Shown one piece after another: positions 27,001 to 36,000 of a stretch of DNA of 64,000 bases. The position numbers are program-made. Each line of letters begins with the position of its first letter. Positions within the stretch are counted from its first letter, which is position 1. Origin of the DNA: Pseudomonadota bacterium (GTDB lineage Bacteria; Pseudomonadota; Gammaproteobacteria; Ga0077536); contig JAYYZW010000039.1 of the NCBI GenBank assembly GCA_036339995.1, positions 35,852-99,851 of the forward strand. The letters run 5' to 3'.

Positions 27001-30000
27001 AAAGCACTTCCAAGGAGAATAAGCGTGCGAGCGTCCAAGCCCTGCGAACCCCTGCCGCGTGATTTCCATGGCAGGCGAGCGACACGCCCTGCCACGGGGT
27101 ATGTGCCCGGGCACAAAAACGTCCATTCGGCGAATGCTTCCACAGCCGGCGCGCTCTGGCTTCACCTGCATCTGCCGCAGCTTCCACTGGAGGCATTGAC
27201 CCGCGGGGTCGCGACACAACGCGCCTGCGTGTTGACCGCAGGGGAGGGCAGCCGCCGGAAAGTCTTGATGGCTAATACCCGCGCGGCGGCGCTCGGTATA
27301 CGCCCGGGCATGCCGCTCGGCGCCGCGCATGCCTTGGGCGAGGTGACCGTGCTCGCGCGCAATGAACGTGCGGAACACCAAGCGCTGGACAAGCTTTGTC
27401 TGTGGGCGTTGCAGCTGAGTTCCCAGGTCAGCGCGGTACCGCCCGATGGGCTGGTGCTGGAGATCAAGGGCAGTCTCAGGCTGTTTAAGGGAATGGACGG
27501 TTTGTTGAGCCATCTGCGCCATGGTCTCAGGGGGCTCGGTTACCGGGTGCAGCATGCGGTGGCGCCGACGCCGATGGCCGCGGCCTTACTGGCGCGTTCA
27601 AATTCCCGTGCGATCGTTTTGGCGGAGCAGGATCTGATGCAGCACCTGTCACCGCTACCCATCGAAACCCTGCGCCTGGAAGTGCGCCACAGGGAGGCAT
27701 TGGAAAGCATTGGCGTCAGGTGTATCGGTGATTGTCGCCGCCTGCCGCGCGACGGCCTGGCGCGCCGTTTTTCACCCGTATTGAACGACATGCTGGATCG
27801 CCTCTTCGGACGGGCGCCCGATCCCCAGCCGGCTTTTTCCGTGCCCCGGTGTTTCGAAGCAGCACTCGACCTGCCCTGGGAACTCGACAACGCGCAGGCG
27901 CTCATCGTCGCGGGGGAACGCTTATTGCACGAATTGGTCGGGTATCTGAGAGGGAATGCGACGATGACGCGCCATCTGCGATGGCGGCTCATCGGTCGCG
28001 ACAATTCCCATACGTGTTTCGAAGTCGGGCTCACGCGGCTTGGCCGGGATTTCGATCACATGTGCCTCTTGCTCAGGGAAACACTGATGCGCATGAATCT
28101 GAAGGTGCCGGTGCGTGCCATCGAACTTTACGTGGATGACATCGTGCGCGGGATGTCGCCGTCTACGAGCGACTTGTTCTTGGAAAGAAACCATCAGGAT
28201 GAGGAAGCTTATGCGGTGTTCGTCGATCGATTCCGTTCGCGTTGTGGTGCCCGGGCACTGCGCGGACTGGAGCTGAAATTCGATCATCGTCCTGAACACG
28301 CATGGTGTTGGCGGTATCCGGACGATGGAAAACGCAGCCCCCCCCCAGGGGCGGTGGCTTCCAGCCCTTTCGGTGCCCGGCCATTGTGGCTGGTAAAGCA
28401 CCCCATGACACTCACGACTCGACATGGGTACCCGGAGTTCGACGGGCCTTTGCAACTGGTTCCCGAGCGCGAGCGGATTGATGCTGGCTGGTGGGATGGG
28501 CATGCAATAGCGCGCGACTATTTCATAGCGACCACCACGAGAGGAAGCCGTTTGTGGATATACGAGGAACTCGGCGGAGAGCGGTGCTGGCGCCTCCATG
28601 GAGTTTTCGAATAAGTCTCTAACAACCTGTCAATTCGGAAAGCACGAAGCCGAGCGTAACAAGCCAAGAATCGAAATCAAGATTCTATTTGTTGCGATCC
28701 CCGACCTTTCACCCCCAAGGCCTCGTACTTTGTGCTTTCCGTCTTTTTTATTTCCAGCGTGACGCGGTAACGGCTCGGTTCGTTGCTGAATCACGCAACA
28801 AATTCCTGACCTCAAGCTTCTTCCAACTATCCGGGGCGCCGAACCAAGCCAGACACGGCGAGCGATTTTAAGTTTCTCGCTTCGTAGTTTGTGCTTTATA
28901 CCCCCTCCTGGTTTGAGGTTTAGCCTCACTGCAACTTCGTATAGCAATGGCTATAACTTTGCGCCGCCTCTAGTGGTTTCGTACTCGCGCGAGCTTTCCA
29001 TCTATTCGCTTGGGTGATGTTTTAACCCTCCGGATGGCAAATCCGGAGGGCAAAATTTTCGTATGGAGCCGAGGAGATCACCGCTATACCTAAATTGCCC
29101 GACTACTGCAAGCCGTCGACTGGCGGAATATTGTTTTTAATGTGGAATTTAAATTAACTATCTGACAAATGTCACGAAGAGGTTATAATCCCTAGTGCTG
29201 CATCAAAGGGGGGACGAACGAGCAATGCGTGCATTCGTCGATTCAGTGTCCAGAATCAGGCTCTAATTGATCATGAAAGCCACGGAAATCAACGACTTAT
29301 TGCCGTTGCGCAACGCCAGTTTCGACACCCTTGTCGAGGCCTTGGAGTACGCGGCAGAGGGTCAGACCGGGTACAACTTCTACGATGGTCGCGGCGAATT
29401 ATACGCTGTGTTGAGCTATCGAGAGCTCCGGGACGAAGCTCGGATACTCGCCAGGCGCCTGCTCGGACTGGGGTGCAAGCGCGGCAGCCGGGTCGCGGTC
29501 ATCGCCGAAACCGAGCCCATGTTTCACCGATTTTTCTTCGCCTGCCAGTTTGCCGGATACATCCCGGTGGCGTTGCCCGCAGGATTTCAGCTCGGCGCGC
29601 GTGCGGCCTATGTCGAACAGCTCGAACGCATGCTTGACAGCTGCAGCGCGGATATCGCGGTGGCTCCGGAATCTCATATCGGATTTCTCAAACAAGCGGT
29701 AGAACGGCTTGATCTCGTGAAGGCGGGGACACCTGAGGAATTCGACAACCTGTCCGAGTATGACATCGAACTCGAACCCCTGCGCGCCAACGAAATAGCC
29801 TACCTGCAGTACACTTCCGGAAGCACGCGTTTCCCGCGCGGCGTGGAGATTTCTCAACATACCGTACTGACCAATCTGCGCGATATCGCGACGCAAGGCC
29901 TCAAGATCACGCGGCAGGATCGTATGGTCGCCTGGTTGCCGCTTTACCACGATATGGGCCTGGTGGGTTTCGTCCTGTTGCCGCTGGGCAGCCAGCTTTC

Positions 30001-33000: not shown

Positions 33001-36000
33001 CTGCGCAAGCCGCCATGAAGAGCTAACGCTTTTTCGCTATGCCAGCCGGCCCTATATATTCACCGCGTCGCCGTGCCCCTCGGTTGTTGCGACGACCCGC
33101 GAAGCACTGCGACAGATTCAGAACCGTCCCGAGCTGCGTGAGAGGGTATGGGCAAACGCAAACCGTCTTTATCCGGCACTCGAAAAACTACAGCTCAATG
33201 TCGGGCCGCACACCAGTCCGGTCATTGGTATCGCACTAAATGATCGGGACCTCGCCTTCGCCTGTTGGCAGGCGCTGCTGGCGGCCGGCGTCTATACCAA
33301 CCTGATTTTGCCGCCCGCCGCCCCCGATGGCGGCAGCCTCATCCGGTGCAGCGTGACCGCCGCCCATAGCATCAAGCAAATCGACGCCATCATCGCCGCC
33401 TTCGCCGACGTCAACCGCGAACTAGGGATTGGACGCGATGCAGCGTAACGTTTAGGAACCTCTGAATAAGTCATGGCATATCTGCCTTGTCCGTGAAATC
33501 GCGCAGTTCGGCGTTACGAACCTCGCTAATAGTCCCCGCTATTGCCTGCGTTTCGTGCCTTGATCCGCCCAATTTCAAGAACAATTCAGACGCACCATGG
33601 CTTATTCAGAGGTTCCTTTATTTGAATCCACCGAGACGATAGAGTCGCCACAGAAGACCCCAGGAGAAAATCAAAGGGTGGCGGCGCTGCAGAGCGGTCG
33701 GTTCCATATGAATGCCGGAGTGGCGTTCAACCTTCCACAGAATGTAGTCCAGCGGGTCATTAAAAGTGAAGGCCGCCTTGAACAAGCGCGCGATGGACAG
33801 CAGTTTTCCTTCGACACGACGCAGCCGCCAGGACCATGCGGCCGCACGACGGCGCGCACCAGACAGCTCGGATCGCCACCGGTGATCACCGATCCTGGAT
33901 AGTGCTAATTCCGGTGCTAGCGCGTCGGTAACCGCCGCTAAGGGTTCGGCATACGCCGCAAACAATTCCGCGGCCTTGCCGCGATCTTCGGCTCGAAGCT
34001 CGCAATCATAGGTAAGCGTAAAAGCATGCTTCCACAATGCATCGGTCGAGAATTCCGGTGCAAGCATCGGAATGACCGATTCCATCATGCGGCGGGCCGC
34101 AGCACGCCCGGCGTCGCTCAGGCGCTGCTCTACCGATTCGTCACGCGCGTAAGCGAGCACGAAGGGTTGCGCAAAACGCGCCCAGAAGTAGGAATGAAAC
34201 CGGCGGCTTATCTCGTGTTCGAACTGCGCGAGGGTGACCGTCGCAAACTTCGCGGCACAGCTTCGATCGCCTTTTTCCAAGGTCAGATGGTAAACGTTCG
34301 GCGGCAATATGCGGTTGGCCACTTGATGAAAAACTCCAGCAATACCCTGAGCGTAGTCGTTCAGCAGGATATAGAAATCGAGCACGGTATCTCGCTTGCC
34401 GCGTAAGTGTGAACCGTAAAGGAGAATTGCGGACACGGCCCCGCCGTGTCTGTCGATCAGTTCGGTGACGAACAGGCGGACCCATACGTTCGCGTCCGCA
34501 TCTTCATTGAGATCGAGGATCAGCGGATTATCATCCATAAGCGCGACGCGTGCCGGAAAAGGTCTGGTAAGCCGCGGCGTGTTTGGCTTGCGCTGCAGTT
34601 GGATCCTTGAGCCATGATTCCAGAGGTTCGCTTCGAATGCGCACCCCCGCAGCATAGATGAGGCGAACGAGCATGATCGCGCTGCTCATGATCGTCCATA
34701 GCGCGACACCGAAAAATCCATAGTCTGGACGCCCGATCAACAATGCGACAGTGAGGATGATCAAGCAGGGGTTTCTACGTGCCGTGTAGAGGCGGAAGTA
34801 GGCGTCGAATGGCCTCCACGCGAACATGCTGCAATGGCCCAGCGCATGGAATAGGGCTTCGATCACACGGCCTGTGATGTAGCCGCCGGCGATCAGCCAG
34901 TAGAGCTCTGATCTCCCGAGATCGAAGAAATTGTCGAAACTCGCGAGACCCATTCCCCAGAACACGTACCAGAATGGTGGGTGGATGATATCCATCCCGT
35001 GATCCAGCACGTGGCCGAAGCGGCTGCTTCTAATCGTGACGCGGGCGAGCTTGCCATCGACCGTGTCGAGCAGCGTCATCACCCAGCCGCATGCAAGACC
35101 ACTCGCATAATGACCGTGCAGGAACAACCAGCTTGATGCGAGAACCAGGAGCAAACCGGTGACGGTCACCATGTTCGGTGAAATACCGGCCAAGGTGCAC
35201 CATTTGACGAAGTGTCTGGCGGGACGCGGCCATAACCATTTGGTCACCAAATCCGTTATGCCCTTGTACGAATTACCATACAAAAAATCTTCCAGCAGGA
35301 TTCGATTCTCGGCCGTGATCGGCTTCAGCAGTGGCGGTTCGATCTTGCGTAACTTTCCGTCGAAGCCGTCTAAATTCTGCGACTTCAAGACAACCATATC
35401 GGGCGGCCGCGTTGCGTTTGCGTGGGTGACGACATCGAGGCAAGCCATTGCGCGTGCGGTGTCGACATGCGCCGCCGCGATATTCTCGTCTTCCGCGCAC
35501 TCGAGCAGGCTCTGCCGGTGCTGTATAAGTCCGACGAGCGTGCGCACTTCGAACAGGTATCCGGCGTTTAAAAGAAGCATGCTATCGACACCGGCTAACC
35601 GGGAAAGATCACCAATGATTTCGTCGGTCCCCGCCGCCCGAAGCTGCCGTTCGATGCGTTCGCGTGAGGTGATGCCCCAGAGCCGCTGGTCGGTAGATCC
35701 CACGATGTAGGCGGCGGTGCTCATGCTATACTGCAAGCTCTAGAGTTGCTAAAAAAGCCGTTTAATTATAATCGCTTATATAATCTATCGGCAAAATTCC
35801 AGTCGGCGCACATGCGCATCGCTCATCTGACCGACCCGCACCTGACATCGCTCGACGGCATATCGCCGTTCGCGCTCAAGGGTAAGCGGCGCTTGGGCTA
35901 TCTGTCGTGGTGGCGCAATCGGCGCCGCCAGTACCGTGCGGAGATGCTGAAGCGAATCACGTGCGCACTTGTCGCCGATGATCCAGACGTCACCTTCGTC

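Follow-up and report, generated by a model that had tools for sequence, protein, structure and literature searches.

In Caulobacter crescentus, the genes CC_1168-CC_1152 form a cluster for ceramide, ceramide-phosphoglycerate (CPG) and putative transport (PMC11324152; PMC9393093), and the AasR protein of this species acylates its cognate acyl carrier protein (ACP), AcpR, and not CoA or AcpP (PMC9386255). AasR, AcpR and Spt of Escherichia coli BL21 have been characterised biochemically, and YghO is listed as the orthologue of the Caulobacter ceramide synthase CC_1154 (PMC9386255). The spt gene of alpha-, beta- and gammaproteobacteria is always accompanied by acpR and aasR (PMC9386255), the combination of Spt, a ceramide synthase of the bacterial type (bCerS) and CerR is used as a signature in the literature (PMC11334938), and contiguous clusters have already been described in E. 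coli BL21, Azotobacter vinelandii and Pseudomonas luteola. Here we describe a locus of this kind on a 64-kb stretch of contig JAYYZW010000039.1 (GCA_036339995.1, positions 35,852 to 99,851), which is called the window hereafter. An operon aasR-cerR-acpR-spt, the last gene of which is predicted to encode a serine palmitoyltransferase (SPT), is the front end of a lipid cluster of 17 genes and 14.3 kb that reaches position 43613, and together with a bCerS gene in that cluster it very probably provides a core ceramide pathway like that established for Caulobacter crescentus and E. coli B.

The genomic data consist of this one window, and related genomes were read up to 10 kb around the cluster. 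Seven related loci were compared (L001, L082, L083, L084, L085, L086 and L090). The identity of the spt product to that of the window is 99% in L084, 84% in L085, 76% in L001 and 66% in L086, and the Tam41-like protein of L090, described below, is 90% identical to its counterpart in the window. Protein families were assigned with Pfam and NCBIfam at curated cut-offs and E. coli BL21(DE3) was the reference for characterised proteins, while Caulobacter was compared family by family against the published gene list (PMC11324152, S1 Text) and not sequence to sequence. In protein searches, all the close relatives carry the labels Gammaproteobacteria or Pseudomonadales metagenome-assembled genomes (MAGs), in agreement with the gammaproteobacterial host proposed in an earlier note on this DNA; for the SPT sequence of the window itself, a look-up of exact matches gave no record.

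The aasR-cerR-acpR-spt operon

The listing of open reading frames (ORFs) and the family scans gave four tightly packed, co-directional genes at 29273-33448 on the plus strand, with an 8-nt overlap between aasR and cerR and gaps of 7-22 nt elsewhere; the gene starts are those called independently on the 99%-identical metagenome contig L084. The order aasR, cerR, acpR, spt is that of CC_1165-CC_1162 in Caulobacter (PMC11324152, PMC9386255) and of aasR-epi/cerR-acpR-spt (ECD_02851-02854) in E. coli BL21(DE3), where yghO precedes the four genes and a second lptG-lptF pair follows them. In E. coli K-12 the locus is not intact. Identities between the window and E. coli BL21 proteins are 44% for AasR (over 558 aa, to the experimentally characterised enzyme), 38% for CerR (ECD_02852), 36% for AcpR, 55% for Spt, 50% for YghO (over 373 aa) and 29% for each of LptF and LptG. 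What the earlier note said of the four genes, namely which they are, in what order they stand and that they match the Caulobacter operon, is upheld by the ORFs, the Pfam and NCBIfam scans and the E. coli BL21 orthology. Of the span 29162-33448 that it assigned to the operon, the end is correct, and the start is not a codon but the first base of a sigma-70-like promoter site; the note also ended its account at spt and so overlooked the ceramide synthase, head-group and Lpt-like genes that lie beyond.

The first gene, aasR (29273-31024, +), encodes a fatty acyl-AMP ligase-type acyl-ACP synthetase, which matched PF00501 (E = 1.9e-57) and the fatty acyl-AMP ligase model NF006624 (736 bits, cut-off 600; positions 3-563 of 567 aligned) and carries the adenylation motif YTSGSTRFPRG. 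It is a full-length member of this type, homologous to the characterised AasR, and is linked to acpR-spt as the first gene of the operon, which places it in the AasR family. In Sphingomonadaceae, by contrast, aasR lies far from acpR-spt (PMC9386255), and whereas aasR of A. vinelandii is a pseudogene, that of the window is full-length.

The cerR gene (31017-31955, +) encodes an NAD(P)-dependent reductase of the extended short-chain dehydrogenase/reductase (SDR) type with Epimerase (PF01370, E = 3.9e-22) and NAD_binding_10 domains and the motifs TGATGFIG and YARSK, which are of the TGxxGxxG/YxxxK type. Its homologues adjoin spt and bCerS homologues in at least 18 distant loci. By the SDR motifs, the homology to ECD_02852 and this co-location, it is a candidate for the bacterial ceramide/3-oxosphinganine reductase. 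The next gene, acpR (31978-32238, +), encodes a dedicated ACP (PF00550, E = 1.4e-9); it starts with TTG, a start also called in L084, with AGGGGAAG 10 nt upstream, and its stop is 7 nt before spt. The phosphopantetheine serine, within DLGLAS, corresponds in the alignment to Ser36 of E. coli AcpP. The similarity of the protein to E. coli AcpR (36%, 44.7 bits) exceeds that to AcpP (28%, 25 bits). With its PP-binding domain, its serine and this similarity, it falls into the AcpR family.

An unrelated lipopeptide or polyketide context for these genes, which the earlier note had named as a refutation, was rejected: no nonribosomal peptide synthetase or polyketide synthase gene was found in the window, where no ORF exceeds 815 aa and the flanks hold genes of ordinary metabolism.

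Assignment of the alpha-oxoamine synthase

The fourth gene, spt (32246-33448, +), encodes an alpha-oxoamine synthase with an Aminotran_1_2 domain (E = 1.4e-48). It passed the NCBIfam SPT equivalog model NF047599, which is the beta/gamma model, with 582 bits against a cut-off of 500, and scored below the cut-offs of the rival models for bioF (320/426 bits), kbl (302/460), ALAS (230/339) and CqsA (201/428). With the alpha-type SPT model it gave 423 bits, below the cut-off of 670, and it thus fits the beta/gamma model better, unlike the alpha-type enzymes. Among solved structures, the best matches were the SPTs of Sphingomonas wittichii and S. paucimobilis (377-387 bits), and lower scores were obtained for Sphingobacterium SPT (267), KBL (216), BioF (168), cysteate acyltransferase (166) and CqsA (123 bits).

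The Sphingomonas enzymes (PDB 2jg2, 2x8u) and the window protein align collinearly along 390 residues, of which about 47% are identical. The pyridoxal phosphate (PLP) lysine and the His, Asp, His and Arg residues are kept, and the catalytic residues H138, D210, H213, K244 and R367 align with those of both S. wittichii and E. coli Spt. The lysine motif quoted in the earlier note, GTFSKSLGSIGGF, is present, and its Schiff-base lysine, which binds PLP, is residue 244, within GTFSKS. A loop, NLILPPAAP, is common to the window protein and the biochemically active E. coli enzyme. The S. wittichii SPT has an Arg before the PPATP loop, whereas the window and E. coli proteins have Leu there; this Arg we take to be Arg378 of S. 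paucimobilis.

A neighbour-joining bootstrap tree was built with E. coli Kbl and BioF as outgroups and included nine distant Spt-like genes that adjoin bCerS homologues. The window Spt was placed beside the Spt proteins of E. coli BL21 (98%) and S. wittichii (100%) and stood apart from Kbl and BioF, and all the Spt-like sequences were separated from Kbl at 98% bootstrap. Because the curated hidden Markov models (HMMs), the matches to solved structures, the catalytic residues and the tree all agree, the enzyme is judged from its sequence to be an SPT of the beta/gamma type. The strong SPT call of the earlier note therefore holds, and the comparison with BioF and Kbl by HMM and tree that it had proposed places the gene with the SPTs and the rival models below their cut-offs. 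In L090, the spt gene called at 11202-12275 encodes 357 aa versus 400, for which a truncation, a frameshift or a mis-called start is possible.

Promoter, leader and the imuB-aasR junction

A sigma-70-like promoter site, CTGACA-16 nt-TATAAT, with 11 of 12 consensus positions, is located at 29162-29189 (+). Its -10 box GGTTATAAT and the adjoining ATGTYACGA are kept in five loci, down to 66% SPT identity. The junction between imuB and aasR (28615-29272, 658 bp) has a GC content of 48% (0.482) compared with about 58-60% around it, as expected from the AT-rich, promoter-bearing junction that the earlier note had reported before the operon. The only LexA box in the window is a perfect one, CTGTATATAATTACAG, at 25711-25726, 24 nt upstream of lexA, and none was found at the operon promoter. 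Since a terminator-like hairpin (29021-29055) sits between imuB and the promoter at 29162, the aasR-cerR-acpR-spt operon is predicted to be a separate transcription unit with its own conserved promoter.

The LexA box and lexA are followed by imuA (NF033429, 191 bits) and then imuB (window positions 25711-28614 in all). Neither the window nor the 10 kb read around the cluster in related loci contained a dnaE2 gene, and the mutagenesis cassette therefore seems to be split in this lineage. In the spacer (28615-29160), which is about 300 bp longer than that of L001, GCYTCGTASTTTGTGCTTT occurs twice, together with inverted copies, and the hairpin at 29021-29055 is GC-rich; the repeats and the hairpin may represent a small repeat element or a terminator.

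Downstream of the promoter, a leader stretch at 29197-29248 (+) that is able to form a stem-loop is conserved upstream of aasR in L084, L085, L001 and L086. The outer helix, CUG.AUC/GAU.CAG, is invariant, a purine-rich AAGGGGG forms a bulge, and the sequence of the inner hairpin varies between loci. The fold architecture is the same in four loci; single-sequence z-scores were not significant, RNAalifold gave a weak consensus with zero covarying pairs, and an Rfam scan of the whole window, which detected one tRNA only, gave no match in the spacer or leader. The stem-loop could act as a cis-regulatory element, and we report it as a lead.

Putative ceramide synthase and head-group genes and Lpt-like genes downstream of spt

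The module downstream of spt (33618-43613) is conserved in all seven related loci. At its far end, the gene at 42438-43595 (-) encodes a YghO-type N-acyltransferase of 385 aa, which by its size, its homology to E. coli BL21 YghO and its linkage to spt is a candidate bCerS of the YghO/CC_1154 family. The match to the GNAT domain PF00583 was weak (E = 0.004; 17.9 bits, cut-off 20.7), and several close homologues, in a family of more than 7900 members, have a recorded PF00583 match. Homologues directly adjoin spt homologues in more than 40 distant loci. As in Caulobacter, the bCerS gene is in a transcription unit separate from the spt operon.

Next to spt, a Tam41-like nucleotidyltransferase is encoded at 33618-34538 (-). 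The window protein itself had no significant Pfam match, and PF09139 (Tam41_Mmp37) was matched by four of six orthologues (best E = 2.6e-7). An AlphaFold model made from 35 homologues had a predicted local distance difference test (pLDDT) score of 90.3, and its best PDB matches were the CDP-diacylglycerol synthases 6ig4, 6ig2 and 7ecd (E about 1e-7, template modelling score 0.5-0.59, about 280 columns, nearly full length). Both the orthologues and the model point to a Tam41-like protein at the level of fold and family; it is named as the counterpart of CC_1161/CpgC in this sense, and orthology beyond that is not claimed. The adjoining gene, at 34531-35724 (-), encodes a CDP-alcohol phosphotransferase with an N-terminal cytoplasmic domain (PF01066, E = 4.4e-11), the counterpart of CC_1159/CpgA, and lies beside the Tam41-like gene in all the related loci. 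It is followed by a calcineurin-like metallophosphoesterase gene at 35812-36690 (+), the counterpart of CC_1158 (PF00149, E = 1.6e-17), which is also kept in related loci.

Two permease genes come next. The LptG-family protein (36707-37771, -) matched PF03739 and TIGR04408 (315 bits, cut-off 240) and gave 134-151 bits with solved LptG chains, and the LptF-family protein (37768-38823, -) matched PF03739 and TIGR04407 (287 bits, cut-off 230) and gave 82-120 bits with solved LptF chains; the position of the pair inside the sphingolipid cluster is kept in the seven related loci. A secreted LptA-like beta-jellyroll protein is encoded at 38972-39493 (+), with matches to PF03968 (E = 1.1e-8) and to TIGR03002 (51 bits, below the cut-off of 71.7). 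A profile of five orthologues gave E. coli LptA (7zax, E = 1.6e-10) as the best match and no LptC match, and all the orthologues begin with a signal-peptide-like segment that ends in A-x-A and looks cleavable. No membrane-anchored partner of the LptC family (PF06835) was detected in the cluster by the Pfam scan, the OstA-like protein matching LptA and not LptC.

The rest of the module reads on the minus strand. A small HIT-like protein (39540-39965) with a weak match around HFHVIP (E = 0.0036, below cut-off) is a possible counterpart of CC_1157; L082, L084 and L090 have the gene, none was called at its position in L083 or L086, and L001 gave no tblastn match. The gene at 40025-40783 encodes a nucleotidyltransferase of the sugar-phosphate type (PF12804, PF00483; all NCBIfam matches far below cut-offs), the counterpart of CC_1152, and that at 41639-42499 a MobA/CofC-like nucleotidyltransferase, the counterpart of CC_1153 (PF12804, E = 4e-9; gene calls in L084 and L090), the start codon of which is uncertain, the proteins of relatives being 260-264 aa. 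Between them, at 40897-41712, lies an OlsC/LpxO-like lipid acyl hydroxylase of the Asp/Arg beta-hydroxylase family (PF05118, E = 5.9e-51), which is kept wherever a related locus extends over this part of the cluster. Because its scores are below the cut-offs of both the OlsC model NF052565 (211 bits, cut-off 450) and the LpxO model (109, cut-off 500), we regard it as a member of the family and not as an OlsC or LpxO equivalog.

Comparison of the whole cluster with the described ones shows both a common core and differences. By family, CC_1161, CC_1159, CC_1158, CC_1157, the LptF/LptG pair CC_1156/CC_1155, CC_1154, CC_1153 and CC_1152 all have counterparts in the window (PMC11324152, S1 Text), and the parts of the Caulobacter CPG/CPG2 pathway that are present are the Tam41-like protein, the CDP-alcohol phosphotransferase (PF01066), the two nucleotidyltransferases (PF12804/PF00483 and PF12804) and the metallophosphoesterase (PF00149). 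On the other hand, Caulobacter has a ceramide kinase, CC_1160, and a CDP-glycerol glycerophosphotransferase, CC_1167, and the window neither; the secreted LptA-like protein is found where Caulobacter has LptC2, and the hydroxylase is an addition relative to the Caulobacter cluster. A Wzx-like flippase, which Caulobacter has in CC_1166, is lacking in the window and present in L001, and neither the Wzx-like flippase nor the Cupin_7 gene of relatives gave a tblastn match in the window.

The E. coli locus is without the Tam41-like, CDP-alcohol phosphotransferase, nucleotidyltransferase, metallophosphoesterase and hydroxylase genes, and has YtfJ-family, Wzx-like and P-loop kinase-like genes (yghS, yghT) where the window has the head-group genes. 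Closer in layout are A. vinelandii DJ and P. luteola, each with a single contiguous gammaproteobacterial locus that contains aasR, cerR, acpR, spt, bCerS, both nucleotidyltransferases, LptF/LptG, the CDP-alcohol phosphotransferase and the Tam41-like gene in nearly the order of the window (PMC11324152, Fig 7 and S2 Table). According to the gene lists, these two clusters contain a ceramide kinase and are without the metallophosphoesterase, whereas the window shows the reverse, and their lists contain neither an LptA-like nor an OlsC-like gene, whereas the window has both.

The interval between spt and the Tam41-like gene, 170 bp in the window, differs among relatives. In L001 it holds, at 11202-12809 (-), a Wzx-flippase-like multi-pass membrane protein of at most 535 aa (maximal ORF; compare CC_1166), and in L085, at 11329-13851, three unrelated genes.

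Predicted pathway and alternative explanations

Based on orthology to the assayed proteins, AasR would use ATP to adenylate a free long-chain fatty acid and load it onto the phosphopantetheine arm of AcpR, and Spt, as a PLP enzyme, would condense L-serine with acyl-AcpR to 3-oxosphinganine. The bCerS/YghO-type acyltransferase, encoded 9 kb downstream, would add the amide-linked acyl chain, and CerR would reduce the 3-keto group to give dihydroceramide; the order of N-acylation and CerR reduction is disputed (PMC11087976, PMC11324152). The later steps are derived from family membership and conserved linkage, and our confidence in the head-group, hydroxylation and transport roles is lower than in the core pathway. 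The OlsC/LpxO-like dioxygenase probably hydroxylates an acyl chain; an anionic phospho-head group similar to that of ceramide-phosphoglycerate is probably assembled by the Tam41-like enzyme, the CDP-alcohol phosphotransferase, the two nucleotidyltransferases and the metallophosphoesterase; and transport of the product in the direction of the outer membrane probably falls to the LptF/LptG-like permeases together with the secreted LptA-like protein.

The gene content, the families, the orthology to characterised E. coli proteins, the conservation of the layout and the separate conserved promoter are direct observations. Several points weigh against the pathway as drawn. The chemistry of each step, the structure of the head group and the role in transport are inferred from the genes. 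The Tam41-like, bCerS and HIT-like proteins of the window have no significant Pfam match of their own and were assigned through orthologues, structure prediction or E. coli YghO. No ceramide kinase of the LCB5/DAGK_cat type (CC_1160/CpgB) was detected in the scanned ORFs of the window or in the cluster of the related loci, and the head-group route of Caulobacter is therefore not transferable as it stands; as this defining kinase is missing here, although a gene for it could be located in another part of the genome, we call the head-group module CPG-like and not a member of the CPG pathway. In addition, both permeases pass the curated equivalog cut-offs for LptF and LptG, and the Lpt genes could therefore be an ordinary exporter of lipopolysaccharide (LPS).

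The explanation that the LptF, LptG and LptA-like genes are such an LPS export set, lying in the cluster by chance, is rather unlikely but deserves the most weight among the alternatives. The similarity of the permeases to the housekeeping LptF/LptG of Pseudomonas and enterobacteria (82-151 bits) is about the same as that to the E. coli copies of the spt cluster (125-136), which speaks in its favour; yet the spt-linked LptF/LptG of E. coli and Caulobacter are extra copies (PMC11324152), the E. coli one located between spt and yghQ-like genes and far from pepA, and in all the related loci that extend this far the Lpt genes are embedded among head-group genes. Moreover, the LptA-like protein, with 51 bits, does not reach the LptA equivalog cut-off of 71.7, and no lptB, lptC or rpoN context was found at the cluster. 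Another reading, a self-contained phosphosphingolipid variant of this uncultured lineage in which the LptA/LptF/LptG paralogues form a dedicated periplasmic bridge for sphingolipid, the head group is assembled without a kinase and the acyl chain is hydroxylated in the OlsC manner, is an idea we put forward as unlikely; its head group could arise if a CDP-activated donor passed a phospho-alcohol directly to ceramide, or with the neighbouring DgkA as ceramide kinase. That the alpha-oxoamine synthase is instead a relative of KBL, BioF, CqsA or cysteate acyltransferase, and the product of the operon a different amino ketone, such as a signal molecule, a biotin precursor or a sulfonolipid base, is extremely improbable. 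All these enzymes share one fold, so that a generic Aminotran_1_2 match does not separate them, and many database homologues are automatically named '8-amino-7-oxononanoate synthase'; however, the bioF, kbl, ALAS and CqsA models gave 201-320 bits, below their cut-offs, while the SPT model was passed, the best SPT structure scored 387 bits versus 166 for cysteate acyltransferase and 123 for CqsA, the tree sets the gene apart from Kbl and BioF with 98-100% support, and orthologues of all four other ceramide genes flank spt.

The earlier note had regarded the operon as fitting an acquired island, behind a junction that interrupts the lexA-imuAB cassette, and a recent insertion into a lexA-imuA-imuB-dnaE2 cassette would account for a 658-bp region of 48% GC between imuB and the cluster, with no dnaE2 in the window. 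Horizontal transfer of such clusters into some gammaproteobacteria has been suggested (PMC11324152), and in L082 the second module is present without the spt operon beside it. The composition does not fit this explanation: the GC content of the cluster is 0.577, compared with 0.582 in the left and 0.605 in the right flank, the tetranucleotide correlation is 0.92-0.96 within the cluster and 0.93-0.97 elsewhere, and the GC content at third codon positions is in the range of the window, so that the comparison with the flanks that the note had suggested shows no difference and only the 658-bp spacer is AT-rich. Furthermore, the order glnS-dgkA-lexA-imuA-imuB-aasR-cerR-acpR-spt-(second module), with the same junction and promoter, is found in L090 and also in L084, L085, L001 and L086, the SPTs of which are 99, 84, 76 and 66% identical to that of the window. 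Neither integrase or transposase genes nor direct repeats at the flanks were observed, the only tRNA gene found by the Rfam scan is 6.5 kb upstream, and the SPT, a beta/gamma-type enzyme, clusters with that of E. coli and not with alphaproteobacteria. Recent acquisition is thus very unlikely, and the ancestor of the lineage may have received the cluster by an ancient transfer.

In connection with the missing kinase, the only lipid kinase gene near the cluster is dgkA (25183-25635, -), a housekeeping-type prokaryotic diacylglycerol kinase gene five genes upstream of the operon wherever this flank was read (L084, L085, L086 and L090). DgkA of E. coli phosphorylates ceramide in vitro, and DgkA as a stand-in for the ceramide kinase is a speculative proposal. 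The linkage may mean nothing, because dgkA and lexA are adjacent in E. coli too. With respect to the permeases, RefSeq gives those linked to spt in E. coli (L081, L087) the plain name 'LPS export ABC transporter permease LptF/LptG', and the name alone therefore does not tell an spt-linked pair from the housekeeping one.

Distribution and significance of the cluster

The genes of the core pathway are widespread. Of the 5426 complete E. coli genomes in the collection searched, 4101 carry an annotated spt gene, and a survey of Black Sea metagenomes found Spt-like genes in MAGs of 38 phyla and raised the number of potential producer phyla from 9 to 40 (PMC11334938); the rarity of sphingolipid synthesis assumed in the earlier note is not supported by these numbers. 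Our search with the window SPT gave at least 120 clusters whose identity to it is 63% or higher. The bCerS family had thousands of members and the Tam41-like family about 1900, and most of the named matches were Gammaproteobacteria or Pseudomonadales MAGs. Homologues of the bCerS and CerR types were found beside spt homologues in dozens of distant loci, in Rhodothermales, Elusimicrobia, Eisenbacteria, Deltaproteobacteria and others.

Since the system has already been described in Caulobacter, E. coli and other proteobacteria, the operon is a further example of it and brings no new principle; publications of 2021-2024 already report the gene arrangement and show it linked to Lpt paralogues and phospho-head-group genes. 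What the locus adds is a 17-gene layout at a fixed chromosomal position across a lineage of environmental gammaproteobacteria, with several hundred homologue clusters from metagenomes. This supports the view that sphingolipids are common proteobacterial outer-membrane lipids, vertically inherited in this lineage. The differences of the lineage from the described clusters are compact candidates for two open questions, namely the route to the outer membrane and the assembly of the anionic head group (PMC11324152).

Neighbouring genes

Adjacent to the cluster, at 43811-50484, there are two tandem N,N-dimethylformamidase-like gene pairs, with DMFA2_C large subunits at 44252-46666 and 47738-50095 and small ORFs alongside. 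Such genes flank the cluster in L082 and L090 as well, where the small ORFs are annotated DMF_alpha. We do not count an ORF of 365 aa at 43745-44842 (-) among the genes, since it runs antisense to the dimethylformamidase-like ones, is rich in Arg and Gly, and has no Pfam or NCBIfam match and no homologue in the related loci.

Further out, at 57881-63924 and 18663-21110, there are genes typical of methylated-amine use. They include an N-methylglutamate-pathway-like set of glutamine-synthetase-like, GATase, GXGXG and glutamate-synthase-domain genes, and a dimethylglycine/sarcosine-dehydrogenase-like gene that is a DAO-GCV_T fusion.

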